12,244 bases of DNA from a virus. Lineage: Duplodnaviria > Heunggongvirae > Uroviricota > Caudoviricetes. Shown piece after piece: positions 1 to 3,475 of the stretch. Numbering within the stretch: the first letter of the stretch is position 1; each line of letters starts with the position of its first letter. The position numbers and the translations under genes were made by a program. The notes beneath the pieces were generated by a model, which saw only the letters and a list, made by a program, of their open reading frames with translations, searched no databases and had not been told where the DNA came from. The stretch is taken from IMG/VR virus record IMGVR_UViG_3300027312_000135; one strand, 5' to 3'.

Positions 1-198
1 GCCGCGCCGGATGAGCCAGTCGCTGATTTCGCTGTACCACATGTGGGATAAGGCGTTCTGGTTGAGGCTGCGCTTCTCGCGCCACGGCTTGATGATCAGC
101 CGGTAGGTTTCGCCAGAGTCGAGCATAGGGAGGATTTGCTGCCCGATGGCGTTGAAGTTCGACCTATGAAGCCGTATGCCGTCCTTCGGTATCTCCAT
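1..198 (-). CDS. ninB: NinB/Orf-family recombination protein, N-terminal part (gene runs off the window start)
   Basis: ATG at 198..196 preceded by an AAGGAGG SD 6 nt upstream. Translation MEIPKDGIRLHRSNFNAIGQQILPMLDSGETYRLIIKPWREKRSLNQNALSHMWYSEISDWLIRRG carries the QQILP and RSL(D/N)QN motifs I recall from lambda NinB. Confidence 0.7.
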   Translation of the reverse strand, partial: MEIPKDGIRLHRSNFNAIGQQILPMLDSGETYRLIIKPWREKRSLNQNALSHMWYSEISDWLIRRG

Positions 199-388
199 CA
201 ACAACCTCCTTCAGTTGCTGAATAATTAGCCGCATATCATCCTCAAGGCGACCAACAGCGCGGTCAGAGAGCGGGTTGTCACCGCGATGGACCATGAGGA
301 GCTGCTGAGAGGCGTTTACGGCGTTGATGTAGGCGTTGCAAATTTGGCGGAATTGACGTTTTGAGATGGTGACTTGCTTGCTGCTCAA
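164..388 (-). CDS. Hypothetical small nin-region protein (74 aa)
   Basis: Track ORF with a TTG start at 388..386 overlapping the TGA stop of the upstream ORF (TTGA), and a GGAGG SD just upstream. Overlaps the ninB start by about 35 nt. No family recognised. Confidence 0.45.
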   Translation of the reverse strand: MSSKQVTISKRQFRQICNAYINAVNASQQLLMVHRGDNPLSDRAVGRLEDDMRLIIQQLKEVVDGDTEGRHTAS

Positions 389-561
389 GTTTCCTCCTGC
401 TTGCTACAGGCGAGCCATGCGGCCTGCCAGCACTTCCACGCGTTAACTGTAGCGGGATCGTCGTACTCACCCTCATAGGTATGAAGGTCGAATCCCAACG
501 AATCAGCCCAAATCTCGAACTCCAGGTTACAGAACTCAAAATTTATTTTATCGTTTTTCAT
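385..561 (-). CDS. Hypothetical small protein (58 aa), paralogous to the C-terminus of the upstream ORF
   Basis: Not in the track (under 60 aa). ATG at 561..559 overlaps the TGA stop of ORF 558..908 (ATGA). Translation MKNDKINFEFCNLEFEIWADSLGFDLHTYEGEYDDPATVNAWKCWQAAWLACSKQEET; the tail W..WQAA...KQEET matches ...FGFWMAWQAALSSKQEST of ORF 558..908. Confidence 0.5.
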   Translation of the reverse strand: MKNDKINFEFCNLEFEIWADSLGFDLHTYEGEYDDPATVNAWKCWQAAWLACSKQEET

Positions 562-908
562 GTGCTCTCCTGCTTACTACTTAAGGCTGCCTGCCATGCC
601 ATCCAGAAGCCAAATTTGATATGTGGCACTGCGTCGGTATATTTCGAGGATTCGAGATGCTTGTATTCAGCCTCAAACCACGCCTCAAACCTCTGCCGCT
701 CTAGCTCAGCTTTATCACTCATAGTTGTTACCGGATTATCAGAACGCGAGCAACTCATAAGGTCGATAGCTTCTTTTGCCAGCGTGCGGATATGCGTCAG
801 CGTGTCCTGCGATGCCGGTTGCTTCCGGGCGACGTCAATGATCGCCAGCACCAGGTTGCGTGTCTGGTCCTGTGTGGGCCGGATAATCAGCTGTGTTACC
901 TGCGTCAT
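558..908 (-). CDS. Hypothetical nin-region protein (116 aa)
   Basis: Track ORF; ATG at 908..906 overlaps the TGA stop of the upstream 51 aa ORF (ATGA), so it is translationally coupled. No family recognised. Confidence 0.55.
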   Translation of the reverse strand: MTQVTQLIIRPTQDQTRNLVLAIIDVARKQPASQDTLTHIRTLAKEAIDLMSCSRSDNPVTTMSDKAELERQRFEAWFEAEYKHLESSKYTDAVPHIKFGFWMAWQAALSSKQEST

Positions 909-1060
909 GCTCTTGCCCCTTCCCGTCCTGCCAGCCAGAAGAAAAACGCGCGGTCGACAACCTCATCCTGATAGCCGAGGTGCGATCGGGTCATGCTGTG
1001 CTTGTCGCCGTGAACGCTGTGATAAAAACGCTCGAAGCTTCTTCTGATGCTTTCGCTCAT
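905..1060 (-). CDS. Hypothetical small protein (51 aa)
   Basis: Not in the track. ATG at 1060..1058 with a GGAGATAATC SD region immediately after the P stop (1063..1065); TGA stop overlaps the next ATG. Translation MSESIRRSFERFYHSVHGDKHSMTRSHLGYQDEVVDRAFFFWLAGREGARA. Confidence 0.4.
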   Translation of the reverse strand: MSESIRRSFERFYHSVHGDKHSMTRSHLGYQDEVVDRAFFFWLAGREGARA

Positions 1061-1062
1061 GA

Positions 1063-1755
1063 TTATCTCCCTTTCCTGACGAGAGCTTTCAGCCGGGCAA
1101 CGTTGTCCAGTGCCTTTTCGCTGGCTGTAGGCATGTAGAGCTTTTCCAGCTGCGCGCGCGGTGGGGGAATTTCTTCACCAGACTCGATGCGCGATGCCAT
1201 TTTGCGAAGCTCGGCGCGGCACTTTGCGCGCAGCTCAGGCTCAGAGAGGTTATTGGCGCGCATGGTGCTGTACAGTCCGGTGACCATCCAGTATGCGGCG
1301 TTGCTTTCCCACGGATACGCCTCGGGGCTGTCGATCAGACCGCGGCGGGCGGAGTACTTCATCACCATGTCATACAGACCGTCTTCGTCCGGCAGACCAG
1401 CGGAGCGGAGCTCGCCCTGCTTGCACCACTCGATAAATTGCCCAGGCGACGGCCAGAACGGCGAGGCACTGGCGCGGGCGTGCTTCATGCCGGCCGACAG
1501 CTGCTGCTTCGTGCTGATGTCGTTTTCAGCGAAGGCGGCGAGCCACTGACGCTTGGCTGAGGCTTCGTCGCGCGGATCCTTCAGCGCAGTGCTGACCGAT
1601 GCGGGAAAAACCTGCTTCAGGCTCATGAACAGCATGTCGACCAGACGCTCAACGGTTTCGTTAACGCCACGATCCACCGGCTGTGGGCCATCACCAGCCA
1701 TGCGGGCCAGCGCGCTGCTGTCGCGGTTGTTTATTGCGGCTACGAGATTTCTCAT
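1063..1755 (-). CDS. P: Lambda P-like replication protein (helicase loader)
   Basis: Translation (from M7 of the track ORF) shows blocks I recall from lambda P: SPGQFIEWC, YPWESNAAYWMVTGLYSTMRANNLSEPELR, RQWLAAFAENDIS. The ATG at 1755..1753 overlaps the O stop (ATGA). Confidence 0.85.
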   Translation of the reverse strand: MRNLVAAINNRDSSALARMAGDGPQPVDRGVNETVERLVDMLFMSLKQVFPASVSTALKDPRDEASAKRQWLAAFAENDISTKQQLSAGMKHARASASPFWPSPGQFIEWCKQGELRSAGLPDEDGLYDMVMKYSARRGLIDSPEAYPWESNAAYWMVTGLYSTMRANNLSEPELRAKCRAELRKMASRIESGEEIPPPRAQLEKLYMPTASEKALDNVARLKALVRKGR

Positions 1756-2675
1756 ATGAAATTTTCCTCCCACTCTCTGCGGTCGTTCCAGTGTGGAATC
1801 TGCTGCTGTGAACTGGATGGCGCGTTGCGGGCCGGCTGGCTCATCTGCGCTTTAAGGGTCGCCCACTGCTTTCGCAGCTTCGACGGGCTGAGGATGTTGG
1901 TCTGCCAGAACTGATTGCCGTTCGCCCAGGTGAAGACTTCGCAGATTTCCCGGTGGCTGACCTTCAGGGAATCGCGCATCAGGCGAATGTCGTTTGCCCA
2001 GGCTGGCCAGTTGGGTTGCTGTGCTGTCGGGGTGATCACCTGAACCTTGCTGAAAATCCACTGAGCAGCCAGAAGGTCTTCAGCGGTTCCCCACTTATCG
2101 CCCTTAGGTGAATGAACCGCTGCATCAGGCCGAACAACAGGAAGACTTTTCAGACGCTCGTCAGAGGATTCGCCAGAATTCTCGGACGTATGTTTAATGT
2201 CTTTTTTGTCTTTTGTAATAGTGTCTTTTGTGTGTCCCTGTTTTGGTGACATCCCTGTCACTGTTTTGGTGACACTTTTTGTCACTGTTTTGGTGACGGT
2301 GACACCATCTTGGTGACACTCTGGAATTTGCCACTCAGCGAGGTTCTTATTAGGCCCGATTAGCATGCCTTCCCGGACCAGAACACCCATCTGAATAAGC
2401 TCGTTTTTCGCCTTGTTCACCTTCTGCCTGGGCAGTCTGGTGAGCTGGCTTATCTGGCTGTCAGCAATGCGATCCATCTTTTTGTTGAAGCCGTATGTTT
2501 TCCGGCAAACAGCATGCGCAACCTTCGCCTGGTTCCTGGTCAGGTTGGCCCCTATCAGCTCTTCGTACAGCTCGTTTGCCAGACGCGTATATCCGTCGTC
2601 TGTGTCTGCCACACGTTGCTCCACGGCCCGGAGTTCGGGCCTGATTGGCGTTACATTTGCGAGAGCGAGGCTCAT
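1752..2675 (-). CDS. O: Lambda O-like replication initiator
   Basis: The N-terminal region (VADTDDGYTRLANELYEE...RKTYGFNKKMDRIADSQISQLTRLP...GPNKNLAEWQIPE) closely matches the lambda O N-terminal domain as I recall it. The central KTVTKTVTKSVTKTVT linker is encoded by the iteron repeats. Start overlaps the ParB-like stop. Confidence 0.9.
   Translation of the reverse strand: MSLALANVTPIRPELRAVEQRVADTDDGYTRLANELYEELIGANLTRNQAKVAHAVCRKTYGFNKKMDRIADSQISQLTRLPRQKVNKAKNELIQMGVLVREGMLIGPNKNLAEWQIPECHQDGVTVTKTVTKSVTKTVTGMSPKQGHTKDTITKDKKDIKHTSENSGESSDERLKSLPVVRPDAAVHSPKGDKWGTAEDLLAAQWIFSKVQVITPTAQQPNWPAWANDIRLMRDSLKVSHREICEVFTWANGNQFWQTNILSPSKLRKQWATLKAQMSQPARNAPSSSQQQIPHWNDRREWEENFI
2234..2317. repeat. 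Replication origin iterons inside the O gene, with adjacent AT-rich region (about 2195..2233)
   Basis: Three direct copies of the 17-mer GTCACTGTTTTGGTGAC (first copy GTCCC variant) at 2234..2250, 2257..2273 and 2281..2297, each with inverted-repeat arms, plus a degenerate fourth at about 2299..2317. A T-rich stretch (tgtcttttttgtcttttgtaatagtgtcttttgtg) lies downstream in the O reading direction, as in ori-lambda. Confidence 0.7.
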
Positions 2676-3475
2676 TTTGCCTCCTCCGGCTCTGTTGCAT
2701 CACCTAACACCCAACGGAGCGCTGCGGCGTAATCGCCGGTTGTCTCTGTCAGTGCCTGGGTAATTTCTTTGCGGGATCTCATGCGGGGTTTGCTTTCGCC
2801 CATCACGGCGCGCTGACGGCGGGCTCTTTCATGGCCCTTCGCTTCTGCACCGACTTGCGTTAGTTCTTTCACCTTGGCGCGCTGCTCTTCAGGCGGCATT
2901 GTTGACAGCTGGCGAGCATGCGTGACCGTCACCTGTCCGCCCTCTACTGCGTCCTGCACAGCCTGCGTGCAGTCCAGCAGTGCCAGGGTAGCTTTTACAG
3001 TCTGAAGGCTGCAGCCGAAAAGCAGCCCTAAATCCTGCTCATCGTGTCCGCGTTCAATCATCGCCGCCATTTTCTTTGCCCGCCCAAGGGGCGTATCGGC
3101 GCGCCGGATTTCGTTCGCGCTGACCATGTACTGGGACATGCGCACTGCCGATCCCCGCTTAGCGATTGCTGGCACGAGTACCGGTTCTTTACCTTCTGCC
3201 GCCAGGCGAATATTAGCCTCCAGGCTATGCCGGACCCGCTGACGACCGTCGACAACGCAGACCTTGCCGGATTCGGGATCTTTCCAGCACAGAACAGGCT
3301 CCAGAACGCCCTGATCCATGATGTTCAGCACCATCGCTTCGTCGATAGGCAGGTGAATGCGCTCGTCATAAAGCGGGTGTGATGGGTTGGTAACCAGGTA
3401 CAGGGCGCCCGGTTCGAAAAACAGCACGTTGCTTTTGCCGCTGGCGCCGTAAGCGTCGATTGAGTTCTTAGCCAT
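2672..3475 (-). CDS. ParB-like nuclease domain protein
   Basis: Track ORF with a GGAGG SD 5 nt before the ATG at 3475. Contains a VVDGRQRVRHSLEAN block resembling the ParB/Srx N-terminal arginine motif. Sits in the usual position between cII and O. Confidence 0.7.
   Translation of the reverse strand: MAKNSIDAYGASGKSNVLFFEPGALYLVTNPSHPLYDERIHLPIDEAMVLNIMDQGVLEPVLCWKDPESGKVCVVDGRQRVRHSLEANIRLAAEGKEPVLVPAIAKRGSAVRMSQYMVSANEIRRADTPLGRAKKMAAMIERGHDEQDLGLLFGCSLQTVKATLALLDCTQAVQDAVEGGQVTVTHARQLSTMPPEEQRAKVKELTQVGAEAKGHERARRQRAVMGESKPRMRSRKEITQALTETTGDYAAALRWVLGDATEPEEAK

Follow-up and report, generated by a model that had tools for sequence, protein, structure and literature searches.

A chain of small genes between P and ninB in a Pantoea-type lambdoid prophage, and a shared C-terminal tail combining a domain helix with ribosome-binding-site codons

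The region between the replication gene P and ninB in the viral (Caudoviricetes) DNA analyzed in the current work (IMG/VR record IMGVR_UViG_3300027312_000135, a stretch of 12,244 nucleotides, the whole of which is referred to as the window) is occupied on the minus strand by open reading frames (ORFs) of 51, 116, 58 and 74 aa, two of which end in a similar C-terminal tail. This raises the question of whether such small ORFs are genes, what the shared tail represents and how the arrangement came about. The nin region of a Pantoea-type lambdoid prophage begins at this locus, in an early-right operon with the gene order cro, cII, parB-like, O, P, small genes (51-116-58-74), ninB, and the P protein encoded here shares 97% identity with its counterpart in a Pantoea latae prophage. 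An E. coli element was considered and rejected, since phage and E. coli collections searched by megablast with this region yielded trivial P or ninB fragments only, and RNA families represented in Rfam are absent throughout the window. The four ORFs were found exactly where the initial annotation had placed them and with the C-terminal sequences quoted there. The features on which the analysis is based are as follows:

1063..1755, minus strand: replication protein P, 230 aa from the ATG at 1755 (PF06992, E 1.4e-64; PHROG 109, E 5.6e-74)
905..1060, minus strand: 51-aa gene, with Pantoea prophage relatives and a weak PHROG 3871 match
558..908, minus strand: 116-aa gene, a fusion of an N-module and a C-module
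723..908, minus strand: N-module of the 116-aa gene (aa 1-62, MTQVTQLIIRP...DLMSCSRSDNPVTT), a portable module in other loci
558..722, minus strand: C-module of the 116-aa gene (aa 63-116), divergent PF26207 / PHROG 343 'FEAW' domain, ending in SSKQEST
385..561, minus strand: 58-aa gene, predicted stand-alone PF26207 domain
164..388, minus strand: 74-aa gene with a TTG start, PHROG 25494
1..198, minus strand: 5' part of ninB/orf (recombination mediator), running off the window end (PHROG 72 NinB/Orf, E 2.1e-17)
389..722, minus strand: two-gene block of 334 bp (54-codon FEAW gene and 58-codon gene), ending at the base before the TTG (DNA alignment A7)
394..405, minus strand: AGCAAGCAGGAG, S-K-Q-E codons of the 58-aa tail, carrying the Shine-Dalgarno for the 74-aa TTG start
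567..578, minus strand: AGTAAGCAGGAG, S-K-Q-E codons of the 116-aa tail, carrying the Shine-Dalgarno for the 58-aa ATG

Judged by their patterns of substitution and conservation, all four small ORFs are real genes. Comparison with sibling loci gave pN/pS ratios of 0.12-0.35 in the claimed frames versus 0.7-5 out of frame; the ratio was 0.13-0.34 for the 51-aa gene (above 2 in its other frames), 0.35 for the 58-aa gene, and 0.20 for codons 2-31 of the 74-aa gene when compared among split-type loci (1.4-2.8 out of frame). The same four genes are called independently on identical and sibling contigs, with gene callers from three sources concurring, and they recur in Pantoea prophages, this being the conservation in related prophages on which the initial annotation had made its reading depend. 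That annotation had also remarked that two of the ORFs were missing from its ORF track, which fits the 51- and 58-aa ORFs being lost from an ORF list limited to at least 60 aa. The practical value of the locus lies largely in annotation and includes these two sub-60-aa ORFs, which are removed by length filters and yet are genes under purifying selection.

The small genes from P to ninB form a tightly packed, same-strand chain. Every junction between P and ninB had initially been described as a 4-nt start/stop overlap, which is correct for three of the five, these being 51/116 and 116/58 (both ATGA) and 58/74 (TTGA); the O/P junction is likewise an ATGA overlap. The P/51 junction reads TAA-TC-ATG, with a 2-nt spacer and no overlap (it is ATGA in siblings L007, L008 and L010), and a stretch of 35 nt is common to the 74-aa ORF and ninB, the stop of the former being located at 164-166 and the ninB ATG at 198, an arrangement matched by the gene calls on sibling contigs. 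Each start is preceded by a Shine-Dalgarno sequence with a pairing dG of -7.1 to -12.4, as compared to a background in which 6.6% of positions reach -6; the values are -8.4 for the 51-aa gene, -10.3 for the 74-aa gene (AGGAGG), siblings of which start with TTG or GTG, and -12.4 for the ninB ATG at 198 (AAGGAGG). For each small-gene start the Shine-Dalgarno sits within the tail of the preceding gene. The internal M63 of the 116-aa protein has a dG of only -3.0, that is, an ATG of its own without a Shine-Dalgarno. No promoter-like or terminator-like site was matched on the minus strand between P and ninB. From the geometry of the junctions only, translational coupling appears plausible though not required, because every gene is also furnished with a separate Shine-Dalgarno. 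Programmed frameshifting across the overlaps was dropped as a candidate because each ORF meets a stop before any slippery run.

Kroger and Hobom are said to have described overlapping stops and starts in the ninR chain of lambda. The locus in the window resembles lambda ninR in its position downstream of O and P on the same strand, its small ORFs, its ATGA-type overlaps and the ninB/orf gene that follows; it differs in that the genes between P and ninB are unrelated to ren and ninA (no PHROG, Pfam or NCBIfam family annotated as Ren or NinA matches any of the four proteins), in that 4-nt overlaps are absent from two of the five junctions, and in having one TTG start. Given its same-strand small ORFs from the replication genes to ninB, its stops and starts that overlap or abut, and its lack of internal transcription signals, the locus is a chain of the ninR kind, lambda ninR having been termed a 'chain of interlinked genes' (Kroger & Hobom 1982, Gene 20:25, as cited in PMC7166090, ref. 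18).

None of the four products had been assigned to a recognisable family in the initial annotation, a statement that is now outdated: the 58-aa protein, like the C-terminal half of the 116-aa protein, matches PF26207 (Phage_phiTE_015) / PHROG 343, an already catalogued phage domain of unknown function, the 74-aa protein matches PHROG 25494 and the 51-aa protein, weakly, PHROG 3871. The PF26207 domain consists of approximately 45 residues arranged as helix/beta-hairpin/helix, with W..WQAA representing the last helix; in profile comparisons the 58-aa protein would represent this domain standing alone, and a second, divergent copy is formed by residues 63-116 of the 116-aa protein. The 58-aa protein, which is very acidic (net charge -8, pI 4.2), carries the motif R.EFE.WA...G.DL...G.Y....T..AW..WQAA and possesses every invariant or near-invariant column of its family alignment A6 (F15, E16, W18, A19, Y33, T38, W42 and W45). 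A protein identical to it has a precomputed PF26207 match graded 'weak' only (E <= 1e-3), and the 58-aa protein itself has no direct match to PHROG 343 at E <= 0.1; its family-profile relatives match PHROG 343 at E 1e-8 to 4e-16 (eight of the ten representatives scanned), and a 54-aa single-domain relative (P0140) has a strong precomputed PF26207 match. An exhaustive profile search with the 58-aa family retrieved 27 representatives, from which three (WD40, DsbA-repeat and FGE-sulfatase proteins) were excluded as spurious, being partial matches in repeat proteins. Structure prediction with AlphaFold2, a check proposed at the outset, yielded for the 58-aa product a model with pLDDT 89 (helix 8-22, beta-hairpin 28-33, helix 36-55), whose matches in BFVD are uncharacterised phage proteins only (rmsd 0.8-1.8 Å, probability 0.99-1.0). 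A PDB fold search with this model gave nothing below E 3, and a PDB sequence-profile search gave spurious hemocyanin W..WQA matches only.

The 116-aa protein matches PHROG 343 over residues 50-107 (E 8.8e-5) and has no precomputed PF26207 match itself; relatives of its C-module that are 74-78% identical in the domain (P0018 and P0020) do have one, and the C-module is approximately 75% identical to the N-terminal domain of hundreds of Ea22-like mosaic proteins of Klebsiella and other enterobacteria, many of which are flagged PF26207. Profile-profile comparison (hhalign) of the 58-aa family (A6) gave 93% and E 2.4e-7 with the 116 C-module family, and 95.7% and E 9.7e-9 with the C-module family of a 109-aa protein, as compared to a borderline pairwise BLASTP result (E 0.008) between the 58-aa and 116-aa proteins themselves. 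Where they can be aligned, the two copies are approximately 27-37% identical, at the DNA level no alignment extends beyond motifs of about 9 nt, and the 116 C-module is without the G.DL loop of the 58-aa subtype. The earlier suggestion that the 58- and 116-aa proteins are paralogues or contain a duplicated domain is thus upheld with respect to a homologous domain and not with respect to a local duplication. Pfam and NCBIfam searches returned nothing for either protein because the Pfam copy that was searched lacks the PF26207 model. A tblastn search of GenBank phages, also proposed initially, produced matches from the 74-aa protein and from a PHROG 343 representative only, the 116-, 58- and 51-aa proteins having none at E <= 0.01.

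In temperate phages the PF26207 domain is carried in three forms, namely alone beside replication genes, as the N-terminal head of Ea22-like coiled-coil mosaics, and as internal repeats, and it was seen in phages of Pantoea, Klebsiella, Salmonella, Pseudomonas, Aeromonas, Stenotrophomonas and Burkholderia. Five independent prophage types have genes for it in the interval from the replication genes to ninB, and such genes occur in tandem elsewhere too, as in locus L015. The copies in the window share with other members the family motif, the predicted helix/beta-hairpin/helix fold and a location in the early region of a temperate phage; they are minimal, consisting of the domain alone or behind an unrelated N-module, whereas most catalogued PHROG 343 / Klebsiella members continue behind the N-terminal domain into a coiled coil and then a C-terminal '...AGIKVEAE' region.

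The latter organization recalls the Ea22-like layout, in which a coiled coil separates a short N-terminal region from a variable C-terminal domain; such proteins are encoded in the exo-xis region, pro-lysogenic activity having been demonstrated for Ea22 itself only (PMC10834534, PMC7093339). Proteins with this layout in enterobacteria have the N-terminal heads that are most closely related to the 116 C-module; two of these proteins (P0104 and P0110) carry the C-terminal domain of lambda Ea22, and both the Ea22-like proteins and the window locus are mosaics of exchangeable modules. Unlike Ea22-like proteins, the 116- and 58-aa proteins are without a coiled coil or Ea22 C-terminal domain and are encoded in the early-right nin region rather than the early-left exo-xis region, and the FEAW head differs from the Ead_Ea22 (IPR025153) N-terminal segment of lambda Ea22. 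Membership of the Ead/Ea22-like proteins was therefore rejected for the 116- and 58-aa products, which share the head domain only and have neither the tripartite layout nor the exo-xis location.

The tail shared by the two proteins consists of two superimposed layers, being the last helix of the domain (W..WQAA) and codons (SKQE) that form a ribosome-binding site. The SKQE codons are AG(C/T)-AAG-CAG-GAG and carry the Shine-Dalgarno of the next gene; in 11 of 11 family gene tails, which precede six different downstream genes, [K/R/E]-Q-[E/G] is encoded by RGCAGGRG, with its end 3-6 nt upstream of the following start. Two copies of the 12-mer AGYAAGCAGGAG are present in the window versus 0.18 expected (three of 200 shuffles reach two), and the 12-mer is found only at such gene tails, in Pantoea and Chimaeribacter loci. 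As SKQE carries the ribosome-binding site of the following gene, it is conserved at synonymous positions as well. The W..WQAA..KQE(S/E)T tail had been put forward as a possible conserved family; its W..WQAA part does represent the PF26207 helix, and its KQE part is conserved at the nucleotide level as a Shine-Dalgarno. A conserved protein 'tail' can consequently be a ribosome-binding site in a second role, and family calls based on motifs should be made with this in mind.

In some long family proteins GKQQ follows the internal repeats, with no gene start at that position; part of the conservation of SKQE-like tails could for this reason reside in the protein sequence.

Lambdoid phages, according to the module theory of Susskind and Botstein, evolve as mosaics with exchange at gene boundaries. 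The N-module of the 116-aa gene (no match in Pfam, PHROG or NCBIfam; predicted at low confidence to be a helical hairpin) is found in other loci as a free-standing protein of 63-68 aa, as part of a 136-aa fusion with the 74-aa module, or joined to another FE.W domain in a 109-aa protein. The 74-aa protein, which is not a PF26207 member, matches PHROG 25494 (unknown function) at E 4.5e-12, its residues 1-65 aligning to positions 1-65 of the 66 in the profile, and has a homologue with 39% identity (tblastn) in the nin region of the Salmonella P22-like phage UPF_BP1. Siblings L003 and L004 encode an intact single 136-aa gene, the C-terminal half of which corresponds to the 74-aa protein (an AlphaFold2 model of this fusion, made as a test for a single fold, was unusable at pLDDT 50). 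Three states of the locus can be discerned: n = 0, P-51-136-ninB, in L003 and L004; n = 1, P-51-109-74-ninB, in L007-L009; and n = 2, in the window, L001, L002 and L010-L013. The 334-bp block is missing from siblings with the intact 136-aa gene, and in DNA alignment A7 the identity breaks at ...ACT|ATGAGT and restarts exactly at GAGCAGCAAGCAAGTC; the n = 1 intermediate has a different FE.W domain and an identical right junction.

These observations are consistent with a modular recombination by which the 334-bp block, containing two complete PF26207 genes, would have come to lie within the single 136-aa gene of the siblings, the event being an insertion or a deletion. The first gene of the block would then be read in frame with the N-module of the host gene to give the 116-aa fusion, and the 3' remnant would be expressed as the separate 74-aa gene, its TTG start and Shine-Dalgarno being supplied by the end of the block. 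The 58-aa copy and the 116 C-module would be ancient paralogues joined by a cassette-type indel and not products of local duplication, because of their 27-37% identity, their unalignable DNA and the closer relatives that each has elsewhere. As in module theory, the n = 0/1/2 breakpoints lie exactly at start or stop codons, and a conserved junction of about 30 nt flanks unalignable modules; unlike in module theory, one breakpoint lies inside an ORF, splitting the gene into a fusion protein and a remnant with a non-ATG start. For annotation, the 116-aa 'gene' would thus represent a fusion of two modules and the TTG-started 74-aa gene a split-gene remnant, and the locus offers a clean, small example of lambdoid mosaic building at single-gene resolution. 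We regard this anatomical and evolutionary account as very probably correct.

Other readings of the same observations have to be weighed against it. That some of the small ORFs are not genes, the real coding sequence being the 188-aa ORF at 481-1047 on the plus strand or the DNA being a non-coding spacer, is hardly credible: such an antisense ORF is present and the small proteins are without known function, but substitutions relative to sibling loci pile up at synonymous sites of the minus-strand frames, conserved homologues exist for all four products, the minus-strand genes are called concordantly by three sources, and every one of their starts has a Shine-Dalgarno. A recent tandem duplication in this prophage, by which the 116 C-half and the 58-aa gene would be local paralogues, would suit two neighbours of the same direction with similar tails, yet it is very improbable considering the low identity of the copies (27-37%, with DNA alignable in the ~9-nt motifs only), the approximately 75% identity of the 116 C-module to Klebsiella and Chimaeribacter proteins, the different subtype to which the nearest distinct relatives of the 58-aa protein (P0137 and P0138) belong, and the presence in sibling prophages of zero copies or of one copy of a third subtype. 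It could also be argued that the tails are alike through nucleotide constraints only (an embedded Shine-Dalgarno with start/stop overlap, or a shared recombination joint) in proteins that are otherwise unrelated. This is improbable, though some observations favour it: the SKQE codons are identical at synonymous sites and in each of the 11 tails are spaced from the following start as a Shine-Dalgarno would be, the window 58-aa tail and the L007 109-aa tail have an identical junction behind unalignable upstream DNA, and pairwise BLASTP between the 58- and 116-aa proteins is weak. However, the likeness extends some 45 residues upstream of the tail (ER..FE.W ... Y.D ... W..WQAA), the two families align in the profile-profile comparison (93%, E 2.4e-7), PHROG 343 spans both lineages, and the W..WQAA helix is kept in family members without a downstream coupled gene.

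The remaining alternative, which is unlikely but the least so of the four, is that the 51-aa protein represents a third, highly diverged PF26207 copy, so that the locus would contain a three-gene domain array. Relatives of this protein fall into 14 clusters with 69-96% identity, including P. piersonii, agglomerans, allii and ananatis. The alignment of the 51-aa protein to the motif is collinear (F9-E10, Y30-x-D32, with FFFW where the motif has W..W), the protein matches PHROG 343 at E 0.045 (as the one match among 15 family members) and the FE.W profile weakly (HMMER 5.9 bits, per-sequence E 4.9e-4; hhalign P 0.018-0.056, with 0.018 the most favourable), and L015 offers a precedent for tandem PF26207 genes. 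Against this, its hhalign probability is only 1-2.5%, it has better PHROG matches to other families, namely 17609 and 3871 (the latter of unknown function; E 0.0018 for the window protein, with 11 of 15 family members matching and a best E of 6.9e-5), it is without either conserved tryptophan of the WQAA helix, and it is basic (pI 8.3) where the domain is usually acidic. The 51-aa protein is not counted as a member of the FE.W / PF26207 family. The preferred explanation as a whole, comprising gene anatomy, two-layer tail, modular origin and inferred function of the domain, is considered likely to be correct.

As to that function, our proposal is a tentative one: PF26207 may be a protein-binding module, small and mostly acidic, that is produced at an early stage of infection or induction and for which binding to a host or phage protein, with modulation of early development or host takeover, would be the most likely role. 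The acidity of the domain (mean net charge -2.8) and its modularity within Ea22-like mosaics were counted towards this proposal. In the long multi-repeat family members no other recognisable domains were found, and the fusions therefore give no functional lead; a search of the literature for PF26207, phiTE_015 and phrog_343 found no paper, and the present findings point to no specific or surprising activity. A functional assignment for PF26207 / PHROG 343 would annotate thousands of prophage genes, since the domain is both widespread and uncharacterised.

A more speculative idea, which we consider a long shot, is that PF26207 genes are portable 'plug-in' cassettes in which a conserved 3' junction of about 12-30 nt (AGCAAGCAGGRG...[A/T/G]TGA) would function as a ribosome-binding and restart signal for any sequence downstream of it, as well as a microhomology joint for recombination. 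As the domain is acidic and recurrently adjoins replication genes, it could under the same idea be an early-effector family, for example one that inhibits a host-defence or replication-associated protein. If true, such cassettes could enter ORFs without silencing the 3' part, as may be compared with the n = 0/1/2 series of the sibling loci.

The genes between P and ninB, together with other features of the window, are the following:

2672-3475, minus strand: ParB-like gene
1752-2675, minus strand: O
1063-1755, minus strand: P, its ATG overlapping the O stop
905-1060, minus strand: 51-aa ORF
558-908, minus strand: 116-aa ORF
385-561, minus strand: 58-aa ORF
164-388, minus strand: 74-aa ORF, TTG start
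198, minus strand: start of ninB/orf (5' end)
7078-8798, plus strand: RecE-like exonuclease VIII (PHROG 412) and RecT (PHROG 561)
11387-11959: DNA methyltransferase gene

The initial annotation had described every junction from P to ninB as a 4-nt start/stop overlap, which holds for three of the five (ATGA at 51/116 and 116/58, TTGA at 58/74), but not for the P/51 junction, where a 2-nt spacer (TAA-TC-ATG) is present in the window and in Pantoea latae, nor for the 74-aa ORF, whose overlap with ninB is 35 nt long both here and across all sibling contigs (related prophages with the same interval). The P/51 junction (window 1061-1062) is polymorphic: where the TAA is absent, P is two codons longer and runs into an ATGA overlap, as in siblings L007, L008 and L010. 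The tails quoted for the 116- and 58-aa ORFs are exact (...FWMAWQAALSSKQEST and ...WKCWQAAWLACSKQEET), and a 60-aa cut-off removes the 51- and 58-aa ORFs from an ORF list, which fits the two reported as missing from the ORF track.

All four small ORFs are genes. The same four gene calls are found on identical or sibling contigs (JGI, ENA and Logan assemblies), and comparison with sibling loci yields pN/pS values of 0.12-0.35 in the claimed frames versus 0.7-5 in the other two. A Shine-Dalgarno match precedes every start (anti-SD dG -8.4, -7.1, -7.4, -10.3 and -12.4, a dG of -6 being reached by just 6.6% of random positions); the internal Met63 of the 116-aa ORF is without one (dG -3.0). The TTG start of the 74-aa ORF is supported by in-frame selection already in codons 2-31, upstream of its first ATG (pN/pS 0.20 versus 1.4-2.8 in the other frames), and is the only possible start in the window, because a TAG interrupts the frame upstream. 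In the identical DNA of L012 (806-1081) and L010 (2674-2898) the 74-aa homologue is called in two ways, either with a GTG start within a GTGA overlap, or as a 91-aa product from an upstream ATG, with a 55-nt overlap with the 58-aa gene. A scan for minus-strand promoter-like or terminator-like sites between P and ninB retrieved none, and no Rfam family was matched. A 188-aa plus-strand ORF (481-1047), antisense to the 51-, 116- and 58-aa genes, is most likely spurious, since the substitutions are distributed as expected for the minus-strand frames.

The small proteins had been noted as matching no recognisable family, which is no longer the case for three of them: the C-terminal half of the 116-aa protein belongs, and the 58-aa protein probably belongs, to PF26207 (Phage_phiTE_015)/PHROG 343, here termed the FE.W domain, and the 74-aa protein, unrelated to that domain, belongs to PHROG 25494 (E 4.5e-12). 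A word-indexed search with the 58-aa protein returned just two close clusters; an exhaustive profile search with its family returned 27 representatives, three of them spurious repeat proteins, the true ones sharing the motif R.EFE.WA...G.DL....G.Y....T..AW..WQAA. The domain occurs as a stand-alone protein of 50-60 aa, at the N-terminus, or as internal repeats in proteins of 246-459 aa (two matched stretches each). PHROG 343 is matched by eight of ten scanned representatives (positions ~36-84) and by residues 50-107 of the 116-aa protein (E 8.8e-5), and the precomputed PF26207 match is weak on the 58-aa protein, present on many relatives of the 116 C-module (residues 63-116), and strong on P0140, a 54-aa database protein consisting entirely of the domain. 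In profile-profile comparison the 58-aa family matches the 116 C-module family (93% probability, E 2.4e-7) and the C-module of the sibling 109-aa protein (95.7%, E 9.7e-9). An AlphaFold2 model of the 58-aa protein from its family alignment (pLDDT 89; helix 8-22, beta-hairpin 28-33, helix 36-55) superposes at ~1 A on uncharacterised proteins from phages of Stenotrophomonas, Salmonella, Pantoea, Achromobacter, Xanthomonas, Pseudomonas, Burkholderia and Ralstonia; fold and sequence searches of the PDB gave no match to this domain. The 51-aa protein is at most a candidate member: it is collinear with the motif at marginal significance (PHROG 343 E 0.045, hhalign P 0.018-0.056, HMMER 5.9 bits), and PHROG 3871 matches it better. 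In L015 (821-1193) the 3' end of the P0140 gene overlaps by 8 nt the next gene, of 71 aa and starting MTEELCRAKFEEWWE, which is another FE.W domain gene, so that tandem PF26207 genes recur outside Pantoea.

The profile-profile link, the family matches and the model thus bear out the suggestion of paralogues or a duplicated domain at the domain level. A local duplication is rejected: the two copies are 27-37% identical and unalignable as DNA, siblings carry either no copy or one of another subtype, and hundreds of Klebsiella, Escherichia, Raoultella and Chimaeribacter proteins have an N-terminal head ~75% identical to the 116 C-module. In the subtype of this C-module (FEAW; window 558-722), the core EYKHLESSKYTDAVPHIKYGFW is near invariant among Pantoea, Klebsiella, Raoultella, Escherichia and Chimaeribacter (P0013-P0120), everything downstream of it being mosaic, and such conservation is unusually strong for a domain annotated without a function.

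The 116-aa protein is a fusion of an N-module (aa 1-62) with a PF26207 C-module; the N-module occurs elsewhere alone (63-68 aa), with the 74-aa module (136 aa) or with a different FE.W domain (109 aa). The corresponding gene orders are P-51-136-ninB in Pantoea latae and Ca. P. deserta, P-51-109-74-ninB in L007-L009, and P-51-116-58-74-ninB in the window and six other contigs. By DNA alignment, a 334-bp block (window 389-722) is missing in the 136-aa type; it begins exactly at the ATG of Met63, its final base immediately precedes the TTG, and identity resumes at GAGCAGCAAGCAAGTC. The window and L007 share one right-hand junction, CGTAGCAAGCAGGAGG(C/A)AACTTGAGCAGCAAGCAAGTC, despite upstream domains that cannot be aligned as DNA; L008 and L010 have GTGA there. 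Block boundaries and sibling orders together place two complete small PF26207 genes within what is a single ORF in other prophages. The first block gene is read through from the N-module, giving the 116-aa fusion, and the 3' remnant restarts at a non-ATG codon behind a Shine-Dalgarno provided by the block. For prophages with zero, one or two PF26207 genes at this position, either insertion of the block or its deletion from the others fits the loci compared.

The shared tail also carries a predicted ribosome-binding site. S-K-Q-E is encoded there by AGT-AAG-CAG-GAG in the 116-aa gene and by AGC-AAG-CAG-GAG in the 58-aa gene, and the CAGGAG(G) within these codons is the predicted Shine-Dalgarno of the next gene. 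Among 11 PF26207 gene tails (window, L006, L007, L008, L010, L014, L015, L017 and L018), followed by six different genes (58-aa, 74-aa, RusA-like, another FE.W, DUF4752 and 251-aa), all ten with a called downstream gene have [K/R/E]-Q-[E/G] codons reading RGCAGGRG and ending 3-6 nt before the next start, and the eleventh (L006) has the same codons ahead of an ATG read from the sequence. The next start lies in a 4- or 8-nt overlap, or 2 nt beyond. The 12-mer AGCAAGCAGGRG is confined to PF26207 tails among the loci examined, and with at most one mismatch is found twice in the window versus 0.18 expected. SKQE is absent from members whose protein continues past the domain (e.g. Klebsiella Ea22-like mosaics), so that the extreme tail is, in part at least, a feature of the nucleotide sequence.

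The domain family has catalogue entries already, and lambdoid phages are well known for mosaic exchange at gene boundaries; the arrangement is not surprising, yet useful for annotation. What is specific to this locus is the block of two genes within an ORF, the remnant gene with a TTG or GTG start and the double meaning of the SKQE tail, as read from the compared sequences.

Family annotation and literature provided no function for PF26207, PHROG 343, PHROG 25494 or PHROG 3871. The PF26207 domain is usually acidic (mean net charge -2.8; -8 and pI 4.2 for the window 58-aa copy). Five independent prophage types have it between the replication genes and ninB, and it also serves as an exchangeable head in proteins built like Ea22 (N-terminal segment, coiled coil, variable C-terminal domain). 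In two of these proteins the C-terminal domain is that of lambda Ea22, a pro-lysogenic early protein that forms tetramers and whose host partner is unknown (PMC10834534). Only tentatively, PF26207 might be a small protein-binding module modulating early development or host takeover. An interaction of the 116- and 74-aa proteins would be expected, since siblings encode the N-module and the 74-aa module as a single polypeptide; the AlphaFold2 model of that 136-aa fusion is of low confidence (pLDDT 50). In other Pantoea prophages, L006 (4391-5147) and L021 (2765-3004), DUF551-type genes (WI.CSE..P) adjoin PF26207 genes in the replication-to-ninB interval, which suggests that small accessory cassettes at this site are drawn from a common pool.

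The window is a lambdoid prophage of a Pantoea-like host: its P protein is 97% identical to that of a Pantoea latae prophage, P. piersonii, agglomerans, allii and ananatis have the 51-aa protein at 69-96% identity, and sequence searches gave no origin in E. coli or in any deposited phage. Its other genes include those for cII, for cro-like and cI-like repressors and for a methyltransferase, and in its early-left operon the RecE-like and RecT pair makes up the recombination module where lambda has exo/bet. In the early-right operon the ParB-like gene (267 aa; HTH_ParB E 1.5e-11; PHROG 1033 and 25613) separates cII from O, as it does in L007 and L010; lambda is not known to have a gene at that position. 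Inside O, at 2244-2287, overlapping repeats TGTCACTG-TTTTGGTGACA lie in a stretch encoding TVTKTVTKSVTKTVT; scored as hairpins in the terminator scan, they resemble the iterons of an ori-lambda-type origin lying within the gene.
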